DNA of 64,000 bases from Candidatus Doudnabacteria bacterium RIFCSPHIGHO2_02_FULL_43_13b (GTDB lineage: Bacteria > Patescibacteriota > Doudnabacteria > UBA920 > O2-02-FULL-48-8): contig MFER01000013.1 in NCBI GenBank assembly GCA_001777655.1, positions 68,322-132,321 on the forward strand. The letters run 5' to 3'. Of this stretch, positions 126-63,424 are shown piece by piece; the stretch's first letter is position 1; every line of letters starts with the position of its first letter. Position numbers and translations under genes: made by a program. Below the pieces are notes generated by a model. The model made no database searches, had not been told where the DNA came from, and saw only the letters and a program-made list of their open reading frames with translations.

Positions 126-1616
126 ATGTTTCACGGTGAAACATATAAAACTATCAGAAATCTTAAGATTCACGAGGTTTTGTTCTACGTATTTCTGTTG
201 TTTTTGCCACTCCAGACCCGGATTCTCTATAATCCAACCTCGGCGTATATCCAAGATTACTTCAATTACCACTTGGCGTTTTTTGTCTATCTGACTGATC
301 TAATTCTAATCACATGTTTTATTAGTTGGTTCTTGTTTCCAACTAACGCATCTGCGAGCGAAGCGAAGCAGTCTATTTTAAGTTTTAGATTGCTTCGTCG
401 GTCAAATGGCCTCCTCGCAAATGCGAACAACCGATTTTTTTGGCTAATTTTAGCCTTTTTTCTAGTAATTTTAATAGGAATGTTCCCCGTGAAACATCTA
501 GATTTTGGCTTATATCAGGCATTTAAGTGGTTAGAGCTCTGGCTCCTAGTGATTTATATCTGGCAAACGTTTCACAAAAGGTTTCACTTCATAGTTTCAT
601 GTGCAACAATCTTCGTTTCTGGCCTGGGACAGGCCTTTCTAGGTCTATGGCAGTTCCACGTGCAACATGGGCTGGGACTGGGCTGGTTGGGCGAATATAT
701 CGCGCCAATAGGCACCTCTGGCCTGGCGACTATCAATGTGGCTGGGGAGAAACTAATCCGCGCCTATGGAACCATGCCGCATCCCAATGTTTTCGGGGCA
801 TTCCTAGTTTTTGGCTTATTTATGGGCTTTTTCTTGGTTTCACATGGAACCTCAAAAGAAACCCATCCCCGCGAAAGCGGGGATCTAAATAAAGCTTTAT
901 CAAGATCCCCGATTACTTATTTAATACTTGCCTCGGGGATGGTTATCGTTACCCTTGGAATCTTTGTGTCATTCTCTAGGTTAGCCTGGATAGCGGCGGC
1001 AATAGGGTTTTTCGGGTTTGGCCTCTATTATTTACTCAAAAAGGCTTGGAAACCCCTAATTTTATTAGGGTTTATAGCGATTGTTTCAGGTGGAACAATC
1101 CTGTTCTTCTTTGGGAACGACTTCAGTGCCCGAGTTTTTGATGCCAATCAAACGGCTTTAGTGGATCGCTGGTTTTTCGACGACCTCGGGTTAAAAATGA
1201 TGGCCCAACACCCACTGTTAGGAGTAGGAGTAGGCAATTATGTTCCGGCGTTACAGGCCGGGGTGTCGTTAGCCTCCTGGCAATACCAACCGGCTCATAA
1301 TATTTTTATCTTCTTGGGAGCAGAACTGGGCATCATTGGCCTGATAATTTTTCTCGGGCTGGTATGGGAAATTTGCCGGCGCCTAAAAAATATTTTTTCT
1401 GATCCATTACTATTTACTATTTACTCATTACTAATTACTATCCTGCTCATGGGACAGTTCGACCATTATTTTGTTACAATTCAACAGGGGAGACTGATGT
1501 TTTTTACTATCCTTGGATTATTAGCGGCGCTGCCCAATCTTTACGATCAACGGCGCGTCATTCCGGACCACGATCCGGAATCCAGATCTCTAGATTCTGA
1601 ATCAAGTTCAGAATGA
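126..1616 (+). CDS. O-antigen ligase / Wzy-like polytopic membrane protein; true start may be internal
   Basis: Many TM segments and a FSRLAWIAAAIGFFG motif typical of Wzy_C/O-antigen ligase. The ORF carries two in-frame palindromic repeat elements (351..428 and 863..942). Confidence 0.6.
   Translation: MFHGETYKTIRNLKIHEVLFYVFLLFLPLQTRILYNPTSAYIQDYFNYHLAFFVYLTDLILITCFISWFLFPTNASASEAKQSILSFRLLRRSNGLLANANNRFFWLILAFFLVILIGMFPVKHLDFGLYQAFKWLELWLLVIYIWQTFHKRFHFIVSCATIFVSGLGQAFLGLWQFHVQHGLGLGWLGEYIAPIGTSGLATINVAGEKLIRAYGTMPHPNVFGAFLVFGLFMGFFLVSHGTSKETHPRESGDLNKALSRSPITYLILASGMVIVTLGIFVSFSRLAWIAAAIGFFGFGLYYLLKKAWKPLILLGFIAIVSGGTILFFFGNDFSARVFDANQTALVDRWFFDDLGLKMMAQHPLLGVGVGNYVPALQAGVSLASWQYQPAHNIFIFLGAELGIIGLIIFLGLVWEICRRLKNIFSDPLLFTIYSLLITILLMGQFDHYFVTIQQGRLMFFTILGLLAALPNLYDQRRVIPDHDPESRSLDSESSSE
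351..428. repeat. Palindromic repeat family 1 copy (GCGAGCGAAGCGAAGCA...TTGCTTCGTCG...CCTCGCAAATGCG), in frame inside the Wzy-like CDS
   Basis: Nested inverted repeats. The same arms recur at 18445..18521, 26308..26372 and 61926..62002, with short relatives at 9386..9417 and 49090..49107. Confidence 0.7.
863..942. repeat. Palindromic repeat family 2 copy (CCATCCCCG..CGGGGATCTAAATAAAGC..AAGATCCCCG..CGGGGATGG), in frame inside the Wzy-like CDS
   Basis: A near-identical composite element lies at 44917..45011; both share the exact 17-mer GGGGATCTAAATAAAGC. Confidence 0.7.
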
Positions 1617-1623
1617 CAAGCTT

Positions 1624-3707: not shown

Positions 3708-3803
3708 ATTTTAAATGATTTATTTTTAATTTTGATTCAATTTCTAATATTTTAATATTAAAAATTCACTCGAAATTCAAAACTGAAAATTAAAAATTAT
3801 ATT

Positions 3804-5107: not shown

Positions 5108-5118
5108 TCAAATATTTT

Positions 5119-5403
5119 TGGTGCCGCAGGTCAGAATCGAACTGACTACGCTCGCCTCTTCCAAAGGCTACTTGGACTATATCATCATCCTTTATAAAAA
5201 GGAGTTGGGCGCTGGTGCAGGGTTATTGTTGGGACTCACCTGCTAGTCTCTACACCTTACAGGAAACCTTCAGCCCTTCCTGCCTTGGCTCGGGATTGTC
5301 TTTTGCAAGAGTTCCCCCGAATTCACCCAATTTTTCTCAAGAACCATTACTGGTTCTGGCCCCAAAGATTTAGGGCGACGCTCTACCAATGAGCTACTGC
5401 GGC
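5119..5403 (-). tRNA. tRNA-Phe (anticodon GAA inferred) interrupted by a group I intron between U33 and G34
   Basis: 5' exon GCCGCAGTAGCTCATTGGTAGAGCGTCGCCCT; 3' exon GAAGAGGCGAGCGTAGTCAGTTCGATTCTGACCTGCGGCACCA. The spliced product is a canonical 75-nt cloverleaf with A73. Confidence 0.7.
5162..5371 (-). ncRNA. Group I intron (IC3-like, tRNA-intron type), about 210 nt
   Basis: P1 pairs exon CCCU with the guide sequence GGGG (U-G at the splice site). P10 pairs UCUUU with the 3' exon GAAGA. The intron ends in G. Core motifs CAAUCCCGAGCCAAG, GGUGUAGAGACUAGC and GAUAUAGUCCAAG match cyanobacterial tRNA-Leu introns. Confidence 0.7.
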
Positions 5404-8862: not shown

Positions 8863-8910
8863 GCACTATAAAATTATAAATAGACGAAATCCCGTCGAAT
8901 GACGGGATCT

Positions 8911-9122: not shown

Positions 9123-9368
9123 CTAGTCATTCTTGAAACGTTCTTTGAGTATTTCTTTTTGTTGATGAGCCTTGAGAAATCTTTCGCGTCTCACTGCTTC
9201 GCCTCTAGTATTATAACTCTCGGAGCCTAGCAACTTCCAGGGTGCATAAGCCTTTGTAGATCTAACTGACTTATTATTGTGCCTTGCAATTCTGCTGCTG
9301 ATATTCTCACAAGATCCTATATAGAGATCCCCGTTTACTTGGCTTTTAAGAAAATAAACATGGTACAT
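9123..9368 (-). CDS. GIY-YIG nuclease family small protein
   Basis: YHVYFLKSQVNGDLYIGSCENISSRIARHN is a GIY-YIG motif; the gene sits next to the tRNA cluster. Confidence 0.7.
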   Translation of the reverse strand: MYHVYFLKSQVNGDLYIGSCENISSRIARHNNKSVRSTKAYAPWKLLGSESYNTRGEAVRRERFLKAHQQKEILKERFKND

Positions 9369-9561
9369 AAAAAATAAAGAGTTTTGTCCCGCTACGCGGG
9401 ATCTCGCGAAGCGAGACAGACTCCAGCCTTACCCCTTGGCTACCAGGCCATAACTAGCATATTATAGTTTTTTTTTCGGAAATAATCTACACCAGACCAA
9501 TTGATCCTTAAGATCTAACAAAAATCCTAGAATTGATTAAGCATAAAAAAACTGCCTATTG

Positions 9562-11018: not shown

Positions 11019-11046
11019 AAAATCCCTCGAACGAGGGATTTTTTAT

Positions 11047-13451: not shown

Positions 13452-15914
13452 ATGGATATCGGTAAAGTCAATCCAAGATCAATTGAACGTGAGATGGAGG
13501 AGTCATATTTGGATTACGCGATGAGTGTGATCGTGGCTCGGGCCCTGCCGGATGTTCGAGATGGGTTAAAACCCGTCCACCGCCGAATTCTTTATGCCAT
13601 GTCAGAGCTCGGGCTTCGCTCCAACGTAAAATTTCGCAAATCAGCGGCTGTGGTCGGGGAAGTTTTAGCCAAATACCATCCCCATGGGGACGTCGCAGTT
13701 TATGATTCCATGGTCCGCATGGCCCAAGAATTCGCCATGCGTTATCCCTTAATTGACGGGCAAGGAAACTTCGGTTCCATGGACGGCGATGCCCCGGCGG
13801 CCATGCGTTATACGGAAGCGCGCATGATGGCTTTGGCCGAAGAAATTTTGGCCGACTTGGAAAAAGACACGGTGGATTGGATGGATAATTATGATGCCAC
13901 AAAAAAAGAACCGAAAGTGCTGCCGGCCAAAGCTCCCAACCTGCTGCTCAACGGCACTTTAGGCATCGCAGTCGGGATGGCCACTGATATCCCGCCTCAC
14001 AATTTAGGGGAAGTGGTGGATTCCGTGATTAAATTAATTGAAGAACCACAAACTACGACTGATGAACTAATGGAGTTTGTGAAGGGCCCGGATTTTCCAA
14101 CTGGCGGATTTATCTATGATTGGAATACAATCAAACAAGTTTACGCCACCGGCAAAGGCCCCATCGTCATGCGCGGCCGGACCGAGATTGTGGAAGAAAA
14201 AGGCGTCCATAAAATTCTGATTACGGAAATTCCCTATCGAGTCAATAAGGCAACTCTCTTAGAGCAGTTTGCCGAGCTGGTGAAAGATAAAAGAATCGAA
14301 GGGATTAAAGATCTAAGGGATGAGTCGGACAAAGACGGGGTGCGAATCGTGATTGATCTGAAAAAAGAAGGCTTACCGAACAAAATTTTAAATCAATTAT
14401 TTAAATACTCATCTTTGCAAGAAACCTTCCACGTCAACATGCTGGCCTTGGTAGATGGAATAGAACCGCAGGTTTTGAACTTAAAAAATATTTTAGAATA
14501 TTACATTAAACATCGGGCCGAGGTTATCAAGCGGCGCACTGCTTTTGATTTGAACAAAGCGAAAGACCGCGCTCACATTTTAGAAGGATTAAAAAAAGCC
14601 CTGGATCATATCGATGCAGTGATCCAAACAATTAAGAAATCTGATACCACGGAAGAGGCTCATGCAGCCCTGATAACAAAATTCAAATTGTCAGATAAGC
14701 AGTCAACCGCGATTCTGCAAATGCAGCTTCGCGCACTGGCGGGATTGGAGCGTAAAAAAATCGACGATGAATTGAAGGAAAAACGGAAATTGATTGAAGA
14801 ATTGGAAGATTTACTCAAAAGTGAAAAAAAGATTAAAACCGTGGTCAAAACCGAACTGTTGGAATTGAAAGATAAATATAACAATCCTCGCAAAACCACG
14901 TTAGTGAAACAACCGATTGGAGAATTTAAAGCAGAAGATTTAATCCCCGAGCAATCAACCATGGTAATCGTTACCAGGTCAGGATACGTCAAACGTCTGC
15001 CCCCAGATACTTATAAAACCCAGGGCCGCGGCGGCAAGGGGGTAATCGGCATGACTACCAAAGAAGAAGACGTGGTAGAATGGCTGTCGACGACCAATAC
15101 TCACGATGATATTTTATTCTTTACGAACAAAGGGCGGGTTTTCCAAACCAAAGTCTACGAATTACCAGAAGCTTCCCGCACCGCCCGCGGTCAGGCCTTG
15201 GTCAACTTCTTGGAACTGCCGACTGATGAAATGGTTTCGGCCATCTTAACTTTTTCCAAGAAAATCCCGGCCAAATTTCTGATCCTTTCGACCAAAAAAG
15301 GCTTGATTAAAAAAACCGTAATCGAGGAGTTCGCGAAAGTCAGGCGATCGGGTCTGATTGCTATAAAGCTCAAAACCGGTGACGAACTGCGCTACGTCAA
15401 ATATTCTACGGGCAACGACGATGTGATTTTGTCCACGGCAGGCGGGCAAGCGATTCGGTTTGATGAAAAAGACGTCAGATCCATGGGCCGCGCCACTGCC
15501 GGAGTGAAAGGTATGCGATTGAAATCCGCCAGAGGCGGATCCTCCTCCGGAGGAAAAGATGATTACCTGATGAGTATGGATTTGGTATCCAAGAAAAACA
15601 AACTGGAAAATTTGCAACTTTTGATCGTCACGGAAAATGGCTTAGGCAAAAAAACAGATTTGAAATTCTACAAACGGCAACATCGCGGAGGATCGGGTAT
15701 AAAAACTTTGAAAGTTAGCCCGAAAACAGGCAAGATTGTCTCCCTCCACGTAATTGATAAAACCGAGGAACACGATCTGATGGTTATTTCCAAACTCGGA
15801 CAAACTCTTAGGACCCCCATCGGCAAAATTTCAACGCTGGGCCGCGCCACCCAAGGCGTACGAATCATGACCTTGGATAATAAAGACAAAGTGGCTACAA
15901 CCACAATAATTTAG
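13452..15914 (+). CDS. gyrA: DNA gyrase subunit A
   Basis: [16 protein letters not shown], the active-site Tyr region, and GyrA-box beta-pinwheel repeats. Confidence 0.95.
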
Positions 15915-15999
15915 AATTTACAATTTTGATTGAATTTTCGAAATTTGAATATTTAATATTCATTCGAAATTCATAACTCAAAATTAAAAATTCACTTTC

Positions 16000-18444: not shown

Positions 18445-18546
18445 TGTCTTTGCGAGCGAAGCGAAGCAATCTCTTTACTTAGGTCGGGATTGCTTCGTCG
18501 CTGTCGCTCCTCGCAAAGACAGAAGGAAAAAGACAGAAGGAAAAAG
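18445..18546. repeat. Palindromic repeat family 1 copy (12-bp perfect outer inverted repeat TGTCTTTGCGAG/CTCGCAAAGACA) followed by a 14-bp tandem GACAGAAGGAAAAA x2
   Basis: Shares the GCGAGCGAAGCGAAGCA and TTGCTTCGTCG arms with the copy at 351..428. The tandem ends at the ruvC ATG. Confidence 0.7.
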
Positions 18547-25973: not shown

Positions 25974-26300
25974 CTATTTTAAACCGCTGATCGTATTTGC
26001 GTTCCAGTTTTTTCCCGCCACTGCTATTTGAAAATTAAATGTAGGCGGGATCCCGCCAAAGGCGGTGACAATCTTTTCTCGCAACTCTTTATTACTCACG
26101 AGCATCTCGCGCAATTTCGTAAATGTCCGCATGATTTGGATATTGACTTGAATCGCGCGTTTACTATTGAGCACACTCGAAAGCATGGCAACGCCTTGTT
26201 CCGTAAAAACCAACGACGCGTATTTGATATTTTGCCTCTATTCAAGGTGCCAATTTGGAACCCCAAGTTCTTTAAGGTCACAAATTGTGACCTCGAAATT
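25974..26300 (-). pseudogene. ORF6N (KilA-N-like) domain gene remnant, frameshifted and N-terminally truncated
   Basis: Frame 1 gives [22 protein letters not shown]; frame 2 continues [36 protein letters not shown] (ORF6N core). A family 1 repeat replaces the upstream part. Confidence 0.55.
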
Positions 26301-26307
26301 TTCTGAT

Positions 26308-26372
26308 AGATTGCTTCGTCGGCGCCGAGGTTCTAACTATAAAAAAAGCGCCTCCTCGCAAATGCGCTTTTC
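26308..26372. repeat. Palindromic repeat family 1 copy (GATTGCTTCGTCGG..CCTCGCAAATGCG)
   Basis: Same arms as 351..428 and 61926..62002; truncates the ORF6N gene. Confidence 0.65.
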
Positions 26373-38082: not shown

Positions 38083-38225
38083 CCCAGTATATCAACTTCG
38101 ATAAATGGTTTATTGGCTTTTGCATAAAATTAAAGTCTTTATTATAGATTTTTTGCTTAATCTATTATTATTAGTTTGATAATAAAACCATTTAGGGGCA
38201 AAAGCATCGAAGTTGTATTACTGGG
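38083..38225. mobile_element. MITE-like element A, copy 1 (about 143 bp, TIR CCCAGTATATCAACTTCGAT / ATCGAAGTTGTATTACTGGG)
   Basis: Near-identical inverted copy at 48128..48274. Terminal inverted repeats match at 18 of 20 positions. The element starts 1 nt from the tsaE start codon. Confidence 0.65.
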
Positions 38226-38282
38226 CTTATTTTAGCAGCTATTGACGACTTAGCCAAAACCAATTATAGTAATATGATTTAT

Positions 38283-38423
38283 GCCCGGTAGTAGAAATTT
38301 GATATTTATCCCGCGACTCGTGGGATAAATAAAAAACAACCGCGCGATAAAATTTCTTTGCTGGTTATAATAATCAAAGACAATTAGTAACTAATTTATT
38401 CTTTAATCAAATTTTCACTACCG
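38283..38423. mobile_element. MITE-like element B, copy 1 (TIR CCCGGTAGTAGAAATTTGAT / AAATTTTCACTACCGGG)
   Basis: Second copy at 47962..48057 with the same termini. It abuts the ATG at 38427 as ..CACTACCGGGTATG. Confidence 0.55.
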
Positions 38424-38426
38424 GGT

Positions 38427-39566
38427 ATGGAAATCACAGCTCAAATTACCTCAAAAATTTCACAGGCCGCCACAGTCTTGATTATTGTGGCAGGAGATAG
38501 CGGTGATAGCCTGGCCGCCGGTTTAGCATTGCAAGGATTTCTTAAAAAACTGGAGAAGGAAACCGCTGTTTTATCCTTCACCCCGAAATTGAACAAGCTA
38601 GATTTTTTGCAAGGATTTAGGGAGGCTCGGGAAGAGCTGGATGTGACCAAAAGTTTTGTCATTGACGTCTCAACCAAGCAGACGCAAATCGAGGAACTAA
38701 GTTATAAAAAAGAGGTTGATAAACTCTCGATTTTTATTAAACCTAAAAAAGGCCAATTCGAAAAAAATGACATTAGTTTCCGCAGTTCAAACTTTCCCTT
38801 CGATTTATTAATCATGATCGGGGTTGACTCGCTGGACCGTTTGGGGCAGCTTTATAATGAAAATACGGAATTATTTTTTGAAACCCCGATTTTAAATATC
38901 GATTTTAAGGCTACTAATGAAAATTTTGGGCAATATAATCTAGTGAATTTGACTGCCACTTCCAATTCGGAAATTGTGTTTGATTTAATCAACCACATTG
39001 AGGCTACCTTTATTGATGAAGCGATCGCGACTCAACTGTTAACCGGGATTATTTCCGAAACCGAAAGTTTCCAGCATGTTCGGACTACACCCCAAACTTT
39101 TCTCAAAGCTTCCCAGTTAGTCAGTTTAGGCGCCAACCAACAGGAAATTATCTCAAGGCTTTATAAGACGAAAAGTTTGGGGTTACTAAAGCTATGGGGC
39201 CGGGTTCTTGCTCGTCTGCAGCAGGCGCCAGAAATTTCTTTGGTTTATTCGTCAATTAATCAAACCGATCTAGAACGCTCACAGGCTTCGGAAGAAGACG
39301 TTCAGACTATTATCAAGGAAATGTCGATGCAGTTAGGGTTTGCCAAACTGTTTTTATTTTTTAAAGAAGACCAGTCCAACCAAACCTCTGTTTGGTGCCA
39401 CTCCACTCTGCCGGTTGATTTAAGACAAATTTTCGCCCAGTTTAAGCCCAAACTACTCGCTTACCAGACGACCTATTTTAGTTTGAACCAACCGTTATCT
39501 GAGGCGGAAAAACAAATCGTCTCGTTGCTAAAAAGTGACATTGCCAAATATAAATTGAACATGTAA
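38427..39566 (+). CDS. DHH/DHHA1-like phosphoesterase (NrnA-like), possibly degenerate active site
   Basis: NrnA-like architecture with VAGDSGDSLAAGLAL in place of HxNPDGDAxGS and NHI in place of DHH. Confidence 0.4.
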   Translation: MEITAQITSKISQAATVLIIVAGDSGDSLAAGLALQGFLKKLEKETAVLSFTPKLNKLDFLQGFREAREELDVTKSFVIDVSTKQTQIEELSYKKEVDKLSIFIKPKKGQFEKNDISFRSSNFPFDLLIMIGVDSLDRLGQLYNENTELFFETPILNIDFKATNENFGQYNLVNLTATSNSEIVFDLINHIEATFIDEAIATQLLTGIISETESFQHVRTTPQTFLKASQLVSLGANQQEIISRLYKTKSLGLLKLWGRVLARLQQAPEISLVYSSINQTDLERSQASEEDVQTIIKEMSMQLGFAKLFLFFKEDQSNQTSVWCHSTLPVDLRQIFAQFKPKLLAYQTTYFSLNQPLSEAEKQIVSLLKSDIAKYKLNM

Positions 39567-43741: not shown

Positions 43742-44385
43742 GTGAAATTAAAGCTGTAATTTTTGATATCGATAATACCTTGACCAAGAAAAATTCTTGG
43801 TGGATGATTGCTGAAGCTATGGGCATGACCATAGCAGAAGATTTGGAAATTTATGAATTATCCAAAAGGGAGAAGGTTTCTCCAAGAGAGGTGGATAAGC
43901 AACTTTTGACTTTGTGGCAAAGGAAAGGATTGGCAACCAAGAGTAATTTTGAAAAAACATTCAGAGAAATGGAGCTAAGAGATGGCGTGCTTGATTTGAT
44001 AAAGTAATTGAAGCAAAAGAGTATAAAAGTTTGTTTAATTACTGGATCGATGGGACCTTTCGCTAAAATTATCGCCGAACGAGTCGCTGCCGATGATTTC
44101 TATTTCAATACGCCTCTTAGCTATGACGAGCAGGGGAATATTACGGATTTAGTATATGAAAAAGATCAAGCGGGACATAAACTTAAGCAATTCACGGAAT
44201 TTTGTCAGAAGTATGGATTTAAACCCGAAGATTGTGTAGTAGTCGGAGATAGCGAAAATGATCTTTTGCTTTTCCTAGAAACCAAGAAAGGTATCGCGAT
44301 TCGGACTGAAGCAGAAGATAAAATTTTGGAGCCTGTCGCTTGGAAAATCATTAATAATTTAGCAGAAATAAAAAATATTTTATGA
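43717..44385 (+). pseudogene. HAD-superfamily hydrolase interrupted by a single in-frame TAA at 44005..44007
   Basis: IFDIDNTL (HAD motif I) sits in the first part and VVGDSENDL (motif IV) in the second; both ORFs share one reading frame. Confidence 0.5.
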
Positions 44386-44879
44386 AACTTATAGAAACGC
44401 CCCTGGGAACGCCTGAGCAATTTAATGTTGTGATTGAAATTCCGAAGGGATCAGAAAATAAAATTGAATATGATGAGATAAAGGACGAAATGTTTGTAGA
44501 TTTTATTTTTACTGGTGGGTTTAAATTCCTATTCAATTATGGTTTTATTTCGAAGACCAAAACTGGCGACGGGGATACCTTGGACGCTATTGTTTTAGGA
44601 CCGAACCCGATTGCTTCGGGGACAGTAGTTTTATGTCGACCCGTGGGGATTATGCGGCAGTTGGATCGGGGGCAAGTGGATAATAAAATTATTGCAGTGC
44701 CAGTAAATGAACCAGAAACTATCTCGATTCAATCAATTCAAGACGTCCCCCAAGGAGAAATTCAAGCCTTTATAGAATTTTATGCCGAAGTGGCTCGGCA
44801 AAAACAGAAAACCATCGAAGTCACTGGTTTTGAAGATAAGGCGAGCGCGATCGAGGAAATAAAAAAAGCAATGATATGA
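44382..44879 (+). CDS. ppa: Inorganic pyrophosphatase (family I)
   Basis: EIPKGS..KIEYD..DGDTLDAIVL signature. Confidence 0.85.
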   Translation: MKLIETPLGTPEQFNVVIEIPKGSENKIEYDEIKDEMFVDFIFTGGFKFLFNYGFISKTKTGDGDTLDAIVLGPNPIASGTVVLCRPVGIMRQLDRGQVDNKIIAVPVNEPETISIQSIQDVPQGEIQAFIEFYAEVARQKQKTIEVTGFEDKASAIEEIKKAMI

Positions 44880-44916: not shown

Positions 44917-45011
44917 CCCATCCCCGAGGCGAGGATTAGCCAAGTGATCGGGGATCTAAATAAAGCCAACTAAGATCCCCGCTCAACTTTAGGAATACTT
45001 AGCGGGGATGG
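44917..45011. repeat. Palindromic repeat family 2 copy (intergenic), preceded by the tandem CGAATACG x3
   Basis: Shares CCATCCCCG..GGGGATCTAAATAAAGC..AAGATCCCCG..CGGGGATGG with the in-frame copy at 863..942. Confidence 0.7.
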
Positions 45012-45959: not shown

Positions 45960-47960
45960 TTACTTGAAACTATGCCGCTTCATCCGTTGTTTTTGGCGGA
46001 TGGCTTGGATTTCATCCCGTAATTTGGCGGCTTGTTCGAAATCAAGATTGCGGGCGGCCAGATCCATCTGATCGCGCAGTTCTTCGATCGCATAAGCAAT
46101 TTCTTGCTTGGTCATTTTGGTCAGATCTCGTTGAGGGGTGAGGGGTGAGGGTTCGGGGGTGAGTTTTTGACCAGCAAGCCGAGATTCGCGAATTGCCTTT
46201 TCTATACCTTTGGGCGTGATGCCATGTTTTTTATTATAATCTTCTTGGATTTTACGGCGACGGAGGACTTCATCCGTGGCCCGCCGCATGGAACCCGTGA
46301 TTTTGTCAGCATACATAATTGCCTTGCCATCTAAATGTCTGGCTGCCCGACCCATGGTTTGGATAAGAGAGGTATCGGAGCGCAAAAATCCTTCCTTATC
46401 AGCATCAAGAATGGCAACCAGTGAAACTTCCGGCAAATCCAAGCCTTCTCGTAAAAGGTTGATCCCCACGACCACATCATAAACACCTATTCGCAAATCG
46501 CGCAAAATTTCCAACCGTTCTAGGGTCTCTACGTCAGAGTGCAGATAATGGACTTTTATCCCATATTCTGTCAGATAATTGGCCAATTCCTCGGCCATGT
46601 TTTTGGTCAAGGTAGTAACCAAGACGCGTTGGTGTTTTTTCACTCGAATTTGGATTTCCTCCATTAAATCATCAATCTGATTTTTCGTCGGCCGAATCTC
46701 GATCTTAGGATCCAACAGGCCGGTTGGTCGGATCAACTGCTCGGCGACTTGTTTTGAGATTTTAAGCTCGCGGTCTTTCACCGGGGTAGCAGAAACAAAA
46801 ATTGTCTGGCCGATTTTTTTCTCAAATTCCTCGAATTTTAAAGGCCGGTTATCGGCAGCAGACGGTAGGCGAAAACCGTAATCAATCAAAGTTTTTTTGC
46901 GGGATTGGTCGCCCAAATACATCCCACCGATTTGCGGCAGTGTCATGTGAGATTCGTCGATAAACAGCAGAAAATCGTCAGGGAAATAATCCAGCAGGGT
47001 AGATGGCGGTTCTCCGGCCTTACGAAAGTCTAGCTGCCGAGAGTAGTTTTCAATCCCTGAGACAAACCCTGTTTCCAGCATCATTTCGATATCGAAATTT
47101 GTTCGCTGCTCAATCCTTTGGGCTTCGAGTTCCTTTCCTTGTTTTTTGAAAAATTTAACCTGATCGGCAAGTTCCTTTCGGATATTGCCAATCGCCGCCA
47201 TTAGCTTTTCTCTCGGTGTGACGAAATGTTTAGCTGGAAAAATAGTATATTCATCCAAGGTCCCGAGATCTTGACCAGTCAGAGGATTGTGCTGGGAAAT
47301 TTTTTCCACCCTATCACCATCAAAATTAAACCGCAAGACCCAATCAGAGGAAGCGGGGATAATTTCGATGACGTCTCCTCTGACGCGGAACGTTCCGCGC
47401 TCTAAATTAATGTCGTTTCGTAAAAACTGCAGATCGGTTAAGCGCCGTAAAAATTTATCTCGCTTGAAAGTCTCACCAATCCTAACTGGAATTGATAATT
47501 CCAAATAATCGTCCGGGGAACCCAAGCCATAGATACACGAAACAGAAGCGACGATCAGGACGTCTTTGCGAGAAAGGAGGCTTTCGGTGGCGGCATTGCG
47601 CAATTTATCAATCTCTTCGTTAATTTCCGTTTCTTTTTCGATATAAGTGTCAGAGCGCGGGATATAGGCCTCCGGTTGATAGTAATCATAATAAGAGACA
47701 AAATAGTGCACAGCGTTATCTGGAAAGAAATTTTGAAACTCTGAGGCTAATTGCGCCGCTAAGGTTTTATTATGAGAAATGATTAAAGTTGGTTTTTGGA
47801 GTTTTTCGATAACGTTGGCCATGGTAAAAGTTTTACCTGAGCCTGTCACCCCCAAAAGCGTTTGGTAGCGGTATTTTTTGGCCAGACCCGCAACTAGTTT
47901 GTCGATGGCATCTGGTTGATCCCCCGCGGGTTTGAAATCGGAATGAATCTTAAACGGCAT
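45960..47960 (-). CDS. uvrB: Excinuclease ABC subunit B
   Basis: [12 protein letters not shown] Walker A, helicase motifs, C-terminal UVR domain. Confidence 0.95.
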
Positions 47961-47961
47961 A

Positions 47962-48057
47962 CCAGGTAGTAGAAATTTGATTAATGCTTAAATTTACTGC
48001 AAGGTGTTATATTAATCTGTTCGCGAAGCGAACAGATATGAAATTTTCACTACCTGG
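47962..48057. mobile_element. MITE-like element B, copy 2
   Basis: CCAGGTAGTAGAAATTTGAT...AAATTTTCACTACCTGG with the internal hairpin CTGTTCGCGAAGCGAACAG. It starts 1 nt from the uvrB start codon. Confidence 0.55.
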
Positions 48058-48127
48058 CATAGTAAATTTCATTGTAGCAGAAATTTGTTGCGGGTGTATA
48101 GACCAACAGAGTATAATACGTTTATGA

Positions 48128-48274
48128 CCCAGTAATACAACTTCGATGCTTTTGCCCCTAAATGGTTTTTGAATTAACCTTCATTAGTTATATGACTAAG
48201 AATACAGTTAATAATAATGGTTTTTTTAGCGCAAAAGCGCACACAAAAACCATTATCGAAGTTGATATACTGGG
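48128..48274. mobile_element. MITE-like element A, copy 2 (inverted relative to copy 1)
   Basis: Its reverse complement aligns along its length with 38083..38225. It ends ..GTTGATATACTGGG directly at the ruvA ATG. Confidence 0.65.
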
Positions 48275-48879: not shown

Positions 48880-49195
48880 ATGAATCATGGATATCAAAAT
48901 TTGATTGTTTGGCAGAAATCAATGTTGGTTGTTAAGGGCGTCTATAAAATCACAGGAGAATTGCCTAAACAAGAACAGTATATTTTAGTTTCACAGATGC
49001 TAAGAGCGGCAATATCTATTCCGTCAAATATTGCTGAGGGATGGTCACGCTAACTGGAATCAAGAGTTTATACGATTTTTTGAAATAGCCTTTGCTTCGC
49101 CTGCGAGCTGGAAACTCAGTTATTGATATGTAAAGATCAATATCAAAAAATAGATTGTAGTTCTGTCGAAGCGATCCTCGTAGAGGTTAAAAAAT
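48880..49195 (+). pseudogene. Four-helix-bundle protein (23S rRNA IVS / Avd-like family) with two frameshifts
   Basis: Frame 1 gives MNHGYQNLIVWQKSMLVVKGVYKITGELPKQEQYILVSQMLRAAISIPSNIAEGWSR then a stop. The family consensus continues in other frames as NQEFIRFFEIAF.. and ELETQLLICKD... Confidence 0.6.
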
Positions 49196-59295: not shown

Positions 59296-61521
59296 TTAGT
59301 TTAATTTTATCGGCCATTTTTCGACCAGCAGTAGGTTCTTGTGATTGATTTGCCAGGCGGCTTCGGTAACGAACGGCACGAATGGATGCAGGAGTTTGAG
59401 GCAAGTTTCCAAGACAGTTTTTAACATTAGTTGGGTGGAAGCCTTGGTTTTTGGATTGGCTAGCTGAGCTTTGGATTCTTCGATAATTTTATCAGCGAAG
59501 GTATGCCAAAAGTAATGATAGAGATTTTCTGCCGCATGGGCGAGGTCTTGTTTGTCCAAAAGTTTAGTTGTGCCATTAGTTACTTTGTCTAAATTTTTCA
59601 GGATGACTTTGTGAGCAGGGGCTAATTGAGCTGTTGCGTCCATGCCCTCTGTGTTTTGCATGACAAACCGAGCCGCGTTCCAAATCTTGTTGGCAAAGTT
59701 TCGGTAGCCGCGGACTTTATCTTCTGATAGCGGCAAATCATTGCCTGGCAAGTTGCCGACAACCAAAGCCATCCGCAGAGCGTCGTTGCCATAAATATCG
59801 ATCACGCCCAAAGGATCAATGACATTGCCCTTGGACTTGCTCATTTTTTGGCGATCTTTATCGCGCACCAGGCCATGAAGGTAGACGTTTTCAAACGGCA
59901 CCTGCCCGGTTTTGTAAAGCCCGAACATAATCATCCGCGCCACCCAGAAGAAGAGAATATCCCAACCAGTTTCCATCATTTGGGTCGGGTAAAAAGTCTG
60001 GAAGTTTATACCCCCCCTAGCCCCCCCTATGTTAGGGGGGGAATCTCTCTGTTCTCCTCCTTTCAAGGGGGAGTTAGAGGGGGTATTATCTAATGCCATG
60101 AGTGTGGCATATGGCCACTGACCGGAAGAAAACCAGGTGTCGAAAGTGTCAGGATCCTGGACCCAACCTTCCCCTGGCGATGCTTCTGAAATTTTCAGCT
60201 CATTGTCTTTATACCACACCGGGATCGGAATGCCCCACCAGATTTGGCGAGAAATCGGCCAGTCACGGATGTTTTTCATCCAATGCATTAGCACTTTTTC
60301 AAATTTTATTGGATTTATTTTAACTTTTTTATTTTTTACAGCATTTACGACCAAATCACGCAGTGAAATTTCGAATTTTGAATTTCGAATTTTGAATTTT
60401 TTTGTCATTGCCACATACCACTGGGGGATGATCAGGGGTTCCAGGACATTCTTACACTTGTAGCATAGTGACACGTTGTGCTTGTAAGTTTCATCGATTT
60501 TTTCCAGCAGTCCCAGCTTCTGCAGATCTTCGACAACTACCTTGCGTGCTTCGGCGACCTTCAGTCCGTGATATTTCGTGTTGGGCAAGTCCATCTTACC
60601 TCGCTTATCAATAACCTGTTTGGGCCCTGGGATTTCATCTTTTCCGCCGGGGACGGATCCGCCTTTGGCGGAATGTTTCTGCCAGATTTCGAAATCTGCG
60701 GCATCATGCGCCGGTGTTACCTTGACTACCCCGGTGCCGAAATCTTTATCTACTAGTTCATCCGCAATCACTTTGATTTTAAATTTGCCCAAAAGTCCTT
60801 CAGCCTCCAGTTCTTGGCCAATGTATTTTTTATATCTGGTATCTTTCGGATTGACTGCCAAGGCCGTGTCGCCAAATTTGGTTTCCGGCCGCACTGTCGC
60901 CAAAGTCAGCGGGCCGTATTTGATGTAATAAAGCGGATCGGTTCGCTCTTCGTGCTCGGTTTCGAGGTCAGCTAGGCCGGTTTGGTGTTTGACACACCAG
61001 TTGCAGATGCGGTTGCCGCGGTAAATCAGACCGTCGCGGTACATTTGCTCAAATGTTTCGTAAACGATTTGGATAATCCGCGGATCCAGGGTAAACATAT
61101 TGCGCGACCAGTCAGTCGAAGCGCCGAGGCGGCGAATGCCGTCTTCGGTTTGCTGTTTATAGTCCTGCACGAAATCCCAGACTTCTTTATAAAATTCCTC
61201 CCGCGTCATCTGAAAGCGTGACCGGCCTTCTTTTTCCAGTTTTTTCTCAAACACGACTTGGGTTTCGAACCCGGCATGATCCGTGCCGGGTAGCCAAAGG
61301 GTTTTTCGGCCGCGCATGCGTTCGAAGCGGATCATGATATCTTGCAGAGTAAAGCCTAATGCGTGGCCGACATGGACTTGGCCGTTGGCATTAGAAGGCG
61401 GCATGATGATCGTATATGGCTTGCCCGACAGATTATCGGGATTAAAAAAACCTGACTCTTCCCAGAGTTTGTAAATCTTGGACTCTTTGGATTGGTCATA
61501 GGTTGTGGGGATGTCGCGCAT
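59296..61521 (-). CDS. valS: Valine--tRNA ligase (short form) carrying two in-frame repeat insertions
   Basis: HVGHALG (HIGH) and KMSKSKGN motifs, editing domain. Insertions lie at 60009..60090 (G/C-homopolymer palindrome) and 60361..60400 (tandem). Confidence 0.85.
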   Translation of the reverse strand: MRDIPTTYDQSKESKIYKLWEESGFFNPDNLSGKPYTIIMPPSNANGQVHVGHALGFTLQDIMIRFERMRGRKTLWLPGTDHAGFETQVVFEKKLEKEGRSRFQMTREEFYKEVWDFVQDYKQQTEDGIRRLGASTDWSRNMFTLDPRIIQIVYETFEQMYRDGLIYRGNRICNWCVKHQTGLADLETEHEERTDPLYYIKYGPLTLATVRPETKFGDTALAVNPKDTRYKKYIGQELEAEGLLGKFKIKVIADELVDKDFGTGVVKVTPAHDAADFEIWQKHSAKGGSVPGGKDEIPGPKQVIDKRGKMDLPNTKYHGLKVAEARKVVVEDLQKLGLLEKIDETYKHNVSLCYKCKNVLEPLIIPQWYVAMTKKFKIRNSKFEISLRDLVVNAVKNKKVKINPIKFEKVLMHWMKNIRDWPISRQIWWGIPIPVWYKDNELKISEASPGEGWVQDPDTFDTWFSSGQWPYATLMALDNTPSNSPLKGGEQRDSPPNIGGARGGINFQTFYPTQMMETGWDILFFWVARMIMFGLYKTGQVPFENVYLHGLVRDKDRQKMSKSKGNVIDPLGVIDIYGNDALRMALVVGNLPGNDLPLSEDKVRGYRNFANKIWNAARFVMQNTEGMDATAQLAPAHKVILKNLDKVTNGTTKLLDKQDLAHAAENLYHYFWHTFADKIIEESKAQLANPKTKASTQLMLKTVLETCLKLLHPFVPFVTEAAWQINHKNLLLVEKWPIKLN
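60009..60090. repeat. G/C-homopolymer palindrome CCCCCCCTAGCCCCCCCTATGTTAGGGGGGGAA..GGGGGAGTTAGAGGGGG in frame within valS
   Basis: Encodes the low-complexity segment ..NSPLKGGEQRDSPPNIGGARGGINF.. inside ValS. Confidence 0.6.
60361..60400. repeat. Tandem repeat ATTTCGAATTTTGA x2 in frame within valS (encodes KFKIRNSKFEIS)
   Basis: A related tandem AAATTCAAAATCC sits in tsaD at 63026..63060, both next to CGCGAAC/GTTCGCG-type hairpins. Confidence 0.55.
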
Positions 61522-61845: not shown

Positions 61846-62430
61846 TTGAATATTTTCAAGCAATATATCCCAGATCAAGATAATATTTTATGGTTGTTGG
61901 AGGAGATAATTGAGAGCTTTGGATTAGATTGCTTCGTCGCCCCGCCATGGCGGGACTTCTCGCAAATGCGTAAAGATGCTTCTGCGAGGAGCGAAGCGAC
62001 GTGGCAGTCTAAAAAAGGCCTGCCCTTAGGCAACCTCACCTCCCAGCTCTTTATCAATCTCTATATGAATGAATTTGATCAATTCGTGAAGCACAAACTG
62101 AAACTTAAATACTATATCAGATACGCCGACGATTTTGTGTTCTTATCCGATACTAAGAATGACCTTACTGCAATACTGTCCCGTATTGCAGTATACTTGA
62201 ACGATGGGCTAAAACTATCGCTTCACCCTAACAAAATTATCCTCAAAACCTTTTCGTCTGGCCTTGATTTCTTAGGCTGGGTGAATTTCCCGCAGCATCG
62301 AGTCTTAAGAGCCGCGACGAAGCGGCGGATGATGAAAAAAGTCAATGAGAAAAACATATCGTCATATTTGGGGCTTCTAAAACATGGAAATACTCGTAAA
62401 ATTTCTACTTCAATTCCAAATTTGGTTTAG
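61846..62430 (+). CDS. Reverse transcriptase, DGR-type signature, N-terminally truncated (fingers motifs 1-3 absent), TTG start
   Basis: GLPLGNLTSQLFINLYMNEFDQFV has the [ILV]GxxxSQ motif diagnostic of DGR RTs, and YIRYADDFVFL is the YxDD catalytic motif. The ORF is only 194 aa, with a stop 21 nt upstream in frame. Confidence 0.65.
   Translation: MNIFKQYIPDQDNILWLLEEIIESFGLDCFVAPPWRDFSQMRKDASARSEATWQSKKGLPLGNLTSQLFINLYMNEFDQFVKHKLKLKYYIRYADDFVFLSDTKNDLTAILSRIAVYLNDGLKLSLHPNKIILKTFSSGLDFLGWVNFPQHRVLRAATKRRMMKKVNEKNISSYLGLLKHGNTRKISTSIPNLV
61926..62002. repeat. Palindromic repeat family 1 copy inside the RT ORF (GATTGCTTCGTCGCC..CTTCTCGCAAATGCG..CTGCGAGGAGCGAAGCGACG)
   Basis: Same arms as the other family 1 copies; translates in frame as LDCFVAPPWRDFSQMRKDASARSEAT between RT motif A remnants and motif B'. 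Confidence 0.65.
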
Positions 62431-63424
62431 CGGAGAAGGTTTTCACAAACTTTGCTTTGTGATTTTTTATGCGATAATAAGCCGCGAGGCCGATCATGGC
62501 TGCGTTGTCAGTGCAGTACTCAAGCTTAGGAATAGAAGCTTTTAGCTTATAGCTTTTAGCTAACAGTCCGAAGCGCTTGCGAAGTAATTTATTCGCAGCA
62601 ACACCGCCGCCGAGCATGATAGTTTTTGGCTTGTAACGGATGATGGCCTTTTCAAGCTTAGCAATCAGAACATCAACAATGGCTTGTTGCACGGAAGCAG
62701 CGATATCAGGTTTTAGGTTATAGGTTATAGGTGATAGTTCCTGAAGCTTATAAAGCACGGCGGTTTTCAGGCCGGAAAAACTGAATTCGAAATTTTTCGA
62801 GTTGATCATAGGCCGAGGAAAATCAAAGGCTTGCGGATTTCCTCGTTCAGCCAGTTTGCTTAAGTGTGGTCCCCCAGGATATGGCAAGCCGAGCATCTTT
62901 GCGGTTTTGTCGAATGCTTCCCCCGCGGCGTCGTCCAAAGTTTCCCCCAAGATGCGATACTGGCCATGTCCGCGCATGAGGACCAACAGCGTATGCCCAC
63001 CGGAGACAATCAATATTATCGCCGGGAATTTTGGATTTTGAATTTTGGATTTTGAATTTTCGCGAACGAAGTTCGCGTAGATATGGGCCTCCAAATGATT
63101 GACTGGCAGCACGGGTTTATTCAGAGCCAGGCCCAAAGCCTTGGCCGTATCAACGCCGACCATTAGTGAGGTCGCCAACCCCGGACCTTCGGTCACTGCG
63201 ATATAGTCGATTTGTTTCAGTGTCGTTTTCGCCTGTTTCAACGCTAAATCAATCGTCGGGATGATGGCCGTAATATGCTCCCGGGCCGCCACTTCGGGCA
63301 CGACACCACCATACTTTTTGTGCAGACTTGCTTGAGAGGCGATAATATTGGATTTTATCTGACCATTAATAATAACCGCGGCCGCGGTTTCATCACAACT
63401 AGTTTCGATGGCGAGGATCCTCAT
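62405..63424 (-). CDS. tsaD: tRNA N6-adenosine threonylcarbamoyltransferase TsaD
   Basis: MRILAIETSCDETAAAV and conserved His/metal motifs. Contains an in-frame tandem-repeat/hairpin insertion at 63026..63080. Confidence 0.85.
   Translation of the reverse strand: MRILAIETSCDETAAAVIINGQIKSNIIASQASLHKKYGGVVPEVAAREHITAIIPTIDLALKQAKTTLKQIDYIAVTEGPGLATSLMVGVDTAKALGLALNKPVLPVNHLEAHIYANFVRENSKSKIQNPKFPAIILIVSGGHTLLVLMRGHGQYRILGETLDDAAGEAFDKTAKMLGLPYPGGPHLSKLAERGNPQAFDFPRPMINSKNFEFSFSGLKTAVLYKLQELSPITYNLKPDIAASVQQAIVDVLIAKLEKAIIRYKPKTIMLGGGVAANKLLRKRFGLLAKSYKLKASIPKLEYCTDNAAMIGLAAYYRIKNHKAKFVKTFSAKPNLELK
63026..63080. repeat. Tandem AATTTTGGATTTTG x2.5 plus hairpin CGCGAACGAAGTTCGCG in frame within tsaD
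   Basis: Encodes ..ANFVRENSKSKIQNPKFPA..; related to the valS tandem. Confidence 0.55.

Follow-up and report, generated by a model that had tools for sequence, protein, structure and literature searches.

The 64,000-nucleotide stretch of DNA studied here (positions 68,322 to 132,321 of contig MFER01000013.1, assembly GCA_001777655.1, from the ultra-small groundwater organism Candidatus Doudnabacteria bacterium RIFCSPHIGHO2_02_FULL_43_13b; hereafter the window) carries three palindromic repeat elements within one gene, which encodes a Wzy_C/O-antigen-ligase-like membrane protein. Two of the elements belong to repeat families with further copies in the window (Families 1 and 2), and the third lies at the 3' end of the gene. 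These elements appear to be intragenic repetitive extragenic palindromic sequences (REPs) of the CGTC type, a known kind of repeat whose class includes some Rickettsia palindromic elements (RPEs), in a lineage without an earlier report of them. From Rickettsia, palindromic repeats in frame have been on record since 2000; for REPs, copies within genes have been known since 2013. Taken together, the sequence comparisons make it probable that Families 1 and 2 and the third element are non-autonomous REP hairpins of the superfamily tagged CGTC or TGTC, and that Family 2 is the gene-less miniature of an element encoding a GIY-YIG nuclease.

The product of the host gene matches, with 100% identity, a protein of 'Candidatus Doudnabacteria bacterium RIFCSPLOWO2_01_FULL' (Candidatus Doudnabacteria, Candidate Phyla Radiation (CPR)/Patescibacteria), and identical copies are encoded on 22 contigs from several samples. 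At 496 aa it compares with a median of 441 aa for its homologue family. Homology runs on in frame on either side of each element and the invariant residues of the family are kept. In an alignment of 24 homologues, the segments encoded by Family 1 (aa 76-101) and Family 2 (aa 246-272) occupy two indel-rich loops; the former is missing from 22 of the 24 and the latter from most. The AlphaFold2 (AF2) model of the protein has a mean predicted local distance difference test score (pLDDT) of 81.6 and a predicted template modelling score (pTM) of 0.85, and its confidence falls to pLDDT 46-58 over aa 71-100 and 52-56 over aa 241-260. These low-confidence inserts are placed between confident helices, with the last ~10 codons of Family 2 (ITYLILASGM) merging into the start of a modelled transmembrane helix (262-281). 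From the order of the helices and the positive charges, we infer that both loops face the cytoplasm. A first-pass annotation, made from the letters of the window without database searches, had placed both families in frame in this coding sequence as extra protein loops. The frame in use is indeed free of stops in an intact coding sequence and, as in genes carrying RPEs, the insertions stand at fold-compatible positions of a functional open reading frame (ORF). The Wzy gene is the only intact host for Families 1 and 2.

Table 1. Repeat elements, their host gene and other features of the window.
Feature	Coordinates	Strand	Remarks
Wzy_C/O-antigen-ligase-like membrane protein, 496 aa	126..1616	+	Pfam PF04932, 7e-18; hosts three repeat elements
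Family 1 dimer, TGTC/CGTC-type units	345..428	+	In Wzy gene; CGCATCTGCGAG-CGAAGCGAAGCAGTCT ... AGATTGCTTCGTCG-side loop-CCTCGCAAATGCG
Family 2, inverted unit pair, tags outward	861..944	+	In Wzy gene; fold z -5.0
Third element, canonical CGTC REP dimer	1556..1619	+	3' end of Wzy gene; overlooked by the first-pass annotation
GIY-YIG ORF, 81 aa, other subfamily	9123..9368	-	Pfam PF01541, 2.2e-13; tRNA-Cys directly past stop
gyrA double mini-hairpin in frame, 10-aa insert	15525..15562	+	Versus E. coli GyrA; neither Family 1 nor Family 2
Family 1, most complete copy, tags TGTC...GACA	18445..18521	+	Intergenic; 9 nt past yebC stop, before ruvC; fold z -5.4
Family 1, right-arm-only copy, 33-nt side insert	26308..26372	+	31 nt downstream of khpB/jag-like gene
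Family 2, intergenic copy	44917..45011	+	38 nt past stop of ORF 44382..44879; no frame open
valS inserts KKFKIRNSKFEI (60367-60402, AT-rich repeat) and PLKGGEQRDSPPNIGGARGG (60013-60081, G/C-run hairpins)	60013..60400	-	Other repeat types
Family 1 in frame in 5'-truncated reverse-transcriptase ORF 61846..62430	61926..62002	+	~25-aa insert between IIxSF and GLPLGNLTSQ
tsaD 6-aa insert SKSKIQ	63027..63060	-	From AT-rich tandem repeat, not palindromic; versus E. coli TsaD

Both families are present where the annotation had placed them, far above chance. The 13-mer GATTGCTTCGTCG of Family 1 occurs exactly four times in the window, always on the + strand (388, 18488, 26309 and 61927), against a mean of 0.14 in dinucleotide shuffles; none of 100 shuffles reached four. 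The 17-mer left arm is found at 354 and 18452. An alignment of the four copies gives the common core GATTGCTTCGTCG...CTC/TCTCGCAAA, of which GATTGCTTCGTCG, a variable side insert of 9-33 nt and CT(C/T)CTCGCAAA form the invariant order; the unit can also be written GTCATTGCGAG...GCAATCC. The copy in the Wzy gene translates as NASASEAKQSILSFRLLRRSNGLLANAN (aa 74-101), with two of the six reading frames open and a DNA fold z of -3.2. When folded as single-stranded DNA, the full copies of both families reach z -3.2 to -5.4 relative to shuffles, and the half copy at 26308 z -0.24. This half copy had been described as truncating an ORF6N gene, which is not established: the gene is a frameshifted pseudogene (25974-26293, - strand) that adjoins the half element. 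Within the pseudogene, a perfect palindrome GGTCACAAATTGTGACC at 26276-26292 encodes the family motif RSQ(I/F)VTS on either strand. The reverse-transcriptase copy is an in-frame insertion as described, but its host is a fragment of 194 aa, versus 320-340 aa in homologues, from which the N-terminal half is gone. Two 'short relatives' that had been counted with Family 1 (9386..9417 and 49090..49107) have only 6-9 nt in common with it in alignment and are not members. Between the copy at 18445 and the start of ruvC, a 14-nt tandem duplication (AGACAGAAGGAAAA twice, 18514-18541) duplicates the likely ribosome-binding site.

Family 2 is represented by two copies that share CGGGGATCTAAATAAAGC (at 878 and 44949; 0 expected). 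The layout of the Wzy copy is ACCC-ATCCCCGC-GAAA-GCGGGGAT-CTA, a spacer, and AAG-ATCCCCGA-20 nt-TCGGGGAT-GGT. It lies in the reverse-complement orientation of the intergenic copy, with a 15-nt deletion in one side loop, and translates as THPRESGDLNKALSRSPITYLILASGMV in its sole open frame, which is the one in use. The annotation had suggested checking that the insertions are multiples of 3; the delimited Family 2 element, at 80 nt, is not, and the net gain relative to orthologues is ~19 aa. All three intergenic copies of the two families sit just past stop codons (9, 31 and 38 nt).

The third element reads CGTC-ATTCCGGA-CCACGA-TCCGGAAT-CCA gatctc TAG-ATTCTGAA-TCAAG-TTCAGAAT-GACA. It encodes the final 19 aa of the Wzy ORF (VIPDHDPESRSLDSESSSE), a C-terminal extension relative to most Wzy homologues, and its AATGAC supplies the TGA stop. 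Predicted peptides that span the elements of the Wzy protein are SASEAKQSILSFR, ETHPRESGDLNK and VIPDHDPESR.

CGTC-tagged REPs have been described as four families (CGTC-1 to CGTC-4) with a CGTC, TGTC or CCTC tag and a stem of 8-9 bp starting from AT (Di Nocera, De Gregorio and Rocco, 2013, BMC Genomics 14:522, PMC3733652). Their units have a loop of 4-5 nt and a CCA tail and mostly form inverted dimers near the 3' ends of ORFs; some copies are intragenic, including in gyrase and Uvr genes (PMC3733652). The class takes in RPE-6 (CGTC-1), RPE-4 (CGTC-4) and the dRS3 of Neisseria, and was reported from five phyla, with no CPR/Patescibacteria and with Sphingobium, A. lipoferum, S. meliloti, Neisseria and Rhizobium among the listed hosts (PMC3733652). 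These REPs are reported to lack a dedicated transposase, and none was found flanked by CGTC units (PMC3733652).

The dimer at 1556-1619 matches CGTC REPs in tag, stem, tail, inverted pairing and location. The 5' tag is CGTC or TGTC on this dimer, and the Family 1 copy at 18445 has TGTC...GACA. Stem and loop follow the norm in the ATCCCCGC-GAAA unit (865-884) and in the ATTCTGAA-TCAAG unit; the ATTCCGGA unit, with a 6-nt loop, is a near miss, and the loop of the second Family 2 unit measures 20 nt. The tails are CCA (1582-1584), CTA (885-887 and from 44956) and, in orthologue copies, CCA. Every full copy is an inverted pair, and the window copies are located like CGTC REPs, at ORF 3' ends with a minority intragenic. 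The Family 2 units of the window match the class but for an ACCC/AACC tag and long side loops. Family 1 appears to differ from the published description in that its outer stem (ATTGC/GCAAT) has just 5 bp and encloses a GCGAAGC mini-hairpin.

The reach of these repeats extends well beyond Doudnabacteria. The Family 1 pattern GATTGCTTCGTCG N5-35 CTCGCAAA was found at 120 loci or more in species-representative genomes from many phyla, and its arms on at least 120 contigs of viral origin; conservation of these arms spans more than ten phyla as well as viral contigs. Hosts among the matches listed include Bradyrhizobium, Pedobacter, Flavobacterium, Dehalococcoidia, Ignavibacteria, Omnitrophota, Coxiellaceae, Legionella, Saccharibacteria and Doudnabacteria. 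Among the matches listed, the 3' end is GAC(G/A) in at least 94 of the 141 copies from genomes and 116 of the 130 from viral contigs, and the left arm has a CGTC or TGTC tag in 40 of 53 and 45 of 49, respectively. Family 1 also stands in frame in UvrC of Doudnabacteria, GltX of Flavobacterium, two ABC transporters and a PLD-like protein. A metagenome scan yielded canonical dimers with the architecture of Family 2, (C/T)GTC-ATCCCCGC-GAAA-GCGGGGAT-CT...AG-ATCCCCGC-TTTC-GCGGGGAT-GAC. A literature search found no paper on palindromic elements in CPR and nothing relevant on REPs in Patescibacteria, and the repeat strings matched only primers.

The elements had been likened to RPEs, and this likeness is supported: they are repeated, form hairpins, occur both between and within genes, and are read through in loops that most orthologues lack. 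RPEs are likewise palindromic, inserted in frame in unrelated housekeeping genes where loops tolerate them, and present as coding and non-coding copies (Ogata et al., 2000). The link appears closer than analogy, as the Family 2 units obey the grammar of CGTC-1. The assignment rests on the equivalence of RPE-6 with CGTC-1 (PMC3733652) and on the resemblance of the Family 2 peptide HPRESGDL to the R. conorii CGTC-1 peptides CHSRRSGNP and CYSRESRNP (PMC3733652 supplement). R. prowazekii, unlike R. conorii, is without the repeats. However, RPE-1 is ~150 bp long and Rickettsia-specific, whereas the elements described here measure 64-95 nt and belong to cross-phylum families that also occur on viral contigs. 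Expression has been shown for some RPE-1 proteins; the decorated proteins discussed here are known from sequence alone.

Two other systems invite comparison. REPINs (REP doublets forming hairpins) and their RAYTs (REP-associated tyrosine transposases) are alike in that inverted pairs are the abundant non-autonomous form and that a single-copy enzyme gene is flanked by units (Nunvar, 2010; Bertels and Rainey, 2011). Their tag is GTAG and their enzyme an IS200-like HUH tyrosine transposase, whereas here the tag is CGTC and the flanked gene encodes a GIY-YIG nuclease of ~95 aa. The GTAG tag was found on none of the window copies, and the flanked gene is of the GIY-YIG type (no RAYT-profile scan of the window was made). 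Intragenic miniature inverted-repeat transposable elements (ERIC, RU-1/2/3, Nezha, QMITE) are likewise small, non-autonomous and sometimes fused in frame (Delihas, 2007, 2011). Unlike these, the elements of the window consist of stem-loop units instead of long terminal inverted repeats, and have no terminal inverted repeat derived from an insertion sequence; at the one clean indel between orthologues, no target-site duplication was seen.

The history of the insertions was followed in four syntenic Doudnabacteria orthologues, with protein identities of 50-55% and third-codon-position identities of 0.39-0.44. All four carry a unit pair at the codon position of Family 2, occupied in three (L248, L249 and L250) and decayed in L247. 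Unit 1 reads ATCCCCGC-GAAA-GCGGGGAT in three orthologues and ATTCCCGC-GAAA-GCGGGAAT in one; the arms of unit 2 are ATCCCAGA/TCTGGGAT in one and ACCCCGGA/TCCGGGGT in two. The compensatory changes in the stems alter the encoded peptide, as from GSQIKSGM to GPRIKSGV. Since the arms pair through compensatory changes while the peptide drifts, it is evidently the hairpin in the DNA or RNA that is maintained, and not the segment of protein that it encodes, judging from these alignments. Family 1 is also present at its site in L247, with 40 of 42 arm positions identical (P about 1e-7) in a gene whose background nucleotide identity is 0.59 and third-position identity 0.40.

In a larger set of 120 orthologues, ~6 have a CGTC-1 pair and ~7 an unrelated hairpin of the FAEASADK type, mostly in the same loop, and more than 100 have no element at all. 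This loop of the Wzy protein is either an insertion hot spot or merely tolerant of insertions. Two orthologues with 81% DNA identity (P0002 and P0004) differ there by a clean 30-nt hairpin indel, at which no target-site duplication was found; one of these two orthologues ends in a Family 1 unit. The first-pass annotation had expected lineage-specific insertions and had named shared peptides in orthologues of distant taxa as grounds for rejecting its view. The segments are indeed absent from most orthologues, but they are not lineage-specific, as other Doudnabacteria orthologues are occupied and the families occur across phyla. Those grounds do not apply, because the occupied orthologues have a hairpin in common at the level of DNA, not a peptide, and most orthologues are without it. 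For the Wzy gene, the original interpretation is essentially right. In L249 (2696-2890), the loop of an intragenic CGTC-1 unit carries a nested 30-nt hairpin of a different family (ACCTGTCCGCTGAAGCTTCAACACAGGCGG), an arrangement of repeat in repeat in gene.

A candidate partner enzyme for this class of repeats was found on the contig of one of these orthologues. The GIY-YIG fold is known from homing endonucleases and UvrC. On L250, a 99-aa GIY-YIG gene is bracketed by a unit pair, the gene replacing the spacer, in the layout [CCCC-ATCCCGCA-CTTGA-TGCGGGAT-CTTGCC]ATG ... TAA[G-ATTCCTGC-TTTC-GCAGGAAT-GGGT]. The nuclease family (~95 aa) retains 60-67% identity across Campylobacterota, Dehalococcoidales, Omnitrophota, Zixibacteria, KSB1 and CPR, and many homologues lie on contigs of less than 1 kb. 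A set of 36 homologues shows no variation at Tyr, Tyr, Gly, Arg, His, Glu and Asn positions, which are typical of active GIY-YIG nucleases such as I-TevI and UvrC. Members of the family include AZOLI_RS22735 of Azospirillum lipoferum and the Doudnabacteria protein P0247. Gene callers have given nuclease ORFs N-terminal extensions that read VIPAKAGIQ, SFPRRRES and TPAEAGVQ, which are translated units.

Bracketing of the nuclease gene recurs in Doudnabacteria, Campylobacterota and Omnitrophota CP070780 (L446, L449, L451 and L452). In the Doudnabacteria contig among these (L446), both flanks of the gene, side loops included, align with the two halves of Family 2 from the window. In the viral loci given below, one unit usually stands 17 nt ahead of the ATG and a second, inverted one 4-16 nt past the stop, with tags outward. 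The types of the flanking units co-vary with the lineage of the nuclease. The gene is also bracketed in Sphingobium, flanked by dRS3-type units in N. gonorrhoeae and by CCTC-tagged units in S. meliloti, and placed between sufB and sufC in Azospirillum lipoferum 4B with full CGTC dimers on both sides. Several of the species that carry the nuclease are listed CGTC-REP hosts (PMC3733652). Among 42 viral loci from IMG/VR with the nuclease, which fall into about ten related groups and so are not independent, a GTC-tagged unit stands upstream of the gene in 26 and downstream of it in 28, with 20 loci flanked on both sides; the corresponding numbers are 105, 166 and 7 for 5328 control ORFs drawn from repeat-containing loci other than those of the nuclease genes (unit within 70 nt of the gene start or stop; Fisher p 1e-32 to 3e-39). 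In the literature that was searchable, no paper was found that pairs GIY-YIG enzymes with REPs.

The same two units bracket a nuclease gene in another Doudnabacteria genome, and units of the superfamily do so in different phyla. The best reading of Family 2 is accordingly that of a gene-less miniature derived from an element with a GIY-YIG gene, much as REPINs stand to RAYT genes; this reading draws on gene context. The putative nuclease would cut at or near the hairpins, and repair of the break from another copy would spread or homogenise the units. Such cutting and repair would explain why the arms are identical or pair-compensated in orthologues whose synonymous sites are saturated. A GIY-YIG enzyme implies cut-and-repair, not single-strand transposition. 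Each element is an inverted pair of stem-loop units with its tags facing outward, and copies may land anywhere. Between genes, they always lie at most 40 nt downstream of a stop codon; those within genes are free of stops in the frame in use and sit in poorly structured loops or at the C-terminus. The latter would be survivors that kept the frame at a tolerant place and were then translated as passenger peptides. CGTC REPs in general might be the termini and gene-less derivatives of a pan-bacterial selfish element, borne by phages too, that encodes the ~95-aa GIY-YIG nuclease, with break repair spreading the hairpins and keeping their arms uniform; we propose this wider view tentatively, as somewhat short of an even chance. 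Family 1 appears tied to the nuclease by shared grammar only, having just the tag, the ATTGC/GCAAT stem and the tail in common with nuclease-flanking units (L375, L376 and L396).

Several observations weigh against a nuclease-driven origin of these repeats, besides the relatedness of the viral loci and the separate source of the control ORFs. The tags of Family 2 in the window are ACCC, AACC and TACC, not CGTC. No nuclease-flanked Family 2 copy is present in the window or in the 10 kb upstream, and the GIY-YIG ORF of the window belongs to a subfamily whose relatives mostly abut tRNA genes, not REPs. For Family 1, none of the 120 genome loci listed has a GIY-YIG ORF, none of 30 matches to a combined query of the Family 1 left arm and YVYI in viral contigs is a GIY-YIG gene, and when all ORFs lying within 800 nt of a Family 1 copy were clustered against one another, no neighbour recurred except for shared phage genes. 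Since both the GIY-YIG scan and the neighbour clustering came up empty, Family 1 is not adjacent to any enzyme gene in these data. The carriers among the Wzy orthologues are scattered on a rough, poorly resolved neighbour-joining tree of 25 sequences, so that one old insertion followed by losses is indistinguishable from repeated insertions. Finally, the association of gene and repeat fits equally well with a nuclease gene homing into pre-existing dimers, so that the dependence may run either way.

On this last view, the nuclease gene would be a free-standing homing endonuclease gene that targets REP dimers, and the repeats would spread by another route. Insertion sequences are known to target REPs, CGTC units have not been found to flank any transposase (PMC3733652), and gene-less dimers vastly outnumber those with a gene. 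The gene always occupies the position of the dimer spacer with a fixed spacing (~17 nt before the ATG, 4-16 nt past the stop), and in Azospirillum it lies between two complete dimers, not two single units. Yet the taxa that carry the nuclease overlap strikingly with the CGTC-REP hosts of Di Nocera et al., and the co-variation of unit type with nuclease lineage is what co-evolving partners would produce, although both facts are compatible with homing as well. We regard homing as rather unlikely, though it is the strongest of the alternatives.

A different possibility is that the host keeps the intragenic hairpins for a use at the level of nucleic acids, such as an mRNA structure that sets the pace at which a membrane protein is translated, a site for an RNase or for termination, or a site bound by a conserved DNA-binding factor, with mobility irrelevant today. 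Stem changes that compensate each other at the cost of altered amino acids, and an arm identity far above the gene background, are what such a use would leave, and the intergenic copies at most 40 nt past stops resemble REPs that are thought to act as RNA elements. Homogenisation from other genomic copies explains the covariation equally well, however. The great majority of the 120 orthologues do without an element, one orthologue copy has decayed, unrelated hairpin families occupy the same loop, and the same arms recur in unrelated genes and phyla. A role for the host is accordingly judged improbable. That the segments are ordinary variable loops with a chance likeness to repeats, or the ORF a pseudogene or assembly artefact, is scarcely credible and already contradicted: both sites are indel-rich in the family alignment, but there are exact matches of 13 to 18 nt where 0-0.17 are expected, the same protein on 22 independent contigs, homology in frame on both sides with invariant residues, and a confident fold.

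Other inserts in the window are of different types. Those noted in valS (12 aa and ~24 aa relative to T. thermophilus ValRS) and tsaD are real by comparison with solved orthologues, but they derive from an AT-rich tandem repeat and from G/C-run hairpins, not from Family 1 or 2. Double mini-hairpins of the form TCCGCCAGAGGCGGA-TCCTCCTCCGGAGGA occur in gyrA (15525-15562) and as a related pair in valS (60635-60672, SAKGGSVPGGK). An AT-rich intergenic direct repeat of 77 nt, 83% identical between 3722-3798 and 15916-15992, is related to the AATTTCGAATTTTGAATTT repeat translated within valS and tsaD. A further hairpin family, ATCTGTTCG-loop-CGAACAGAT, is present at 48015-48037 and, 5 kb upstream of the window on the same contig, at L001:4732-4754. 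Single units of the tagged type lie directly past ORF ends at 8889-8908 and 11022-11039. Several 7-8-mer matches to the families elsewhere in the window were judged to be chance. Rfam gave no match at its gathering threshold on the repeats, and only sub-threshold chance matches on 300-1000. Integron attC sites, CRISPR repeats and retron msd were considered and dropped, as their defining sequence features are all absent.

The GIY-YIG ORF of the window (9123..9368) is preceded, 17 nt upstream of its ATG, by a hairpin pair TCGCTTCGCGA and TCCCGCGTAGCGGGA (9386-9417). In 150 representatives of its subfamily, N-terminal extensions read as tRNA 3' halves (GSNP, RFES); the subfamily therefore associates with tRNA genes, which suggests that its members insert next to them. 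Viral contigs contained no close relatives. On several Doudnabacteria contigs (L248:1-348, L001:5984-6223), the syntenic block that includes Wzy also holds, a few kb upstream of that gene, one or two small GIY-YIG genes or the truncated remnant of one. A group I intron (Rfam RF00028, 66.7 bits, 5152-5381) within 5118-5403 on the - strand splits a tRNA gene at its anticodon loop. The split gene, with 5' exon GCCGCAGTAGCTCATTGGTAGAGCGTCGCCCT and a 3' exon ending in ...GTTCGATTCTGACCTGCGGCACCA, belongs to a tRNA cluster (Gly, Val, Leu) and was not called by ARAGORN. An inverted repeat of ~350 nt (38083-38429 and 47958-48274), its arms 84-91% complementary in three blocks, fills two divergent intergenic regions on either side of seven ORFs that together span 9.5 kb. 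It may represent a promoter region that was duplicated, or else the termini of a segment able to invert or move.

The known phenomenon of in-frame repeats is extended by these elements to the CPR, whose small genomes had no earlier report of it. To the published picture are added the pan-bacterial and viral reach of the arms, an evolution within coding sequence that preserves hairpins, and, for a class of repeats that has been an orphan, a candidate partner enzyme. One consequence for annotation is that many short peptides labelled 'hypothetical', and many extensions at N- or C-termini, are translated units (for example VIPAKAGI, SFPRKRES, VIASEAKQS and DCFASLAMT). If the nuclease is the partner, a direct test of what mobilises CGTC REPs and their RPE relatives could be made with a protein of 95 residues and a hairpin of 25 nt.

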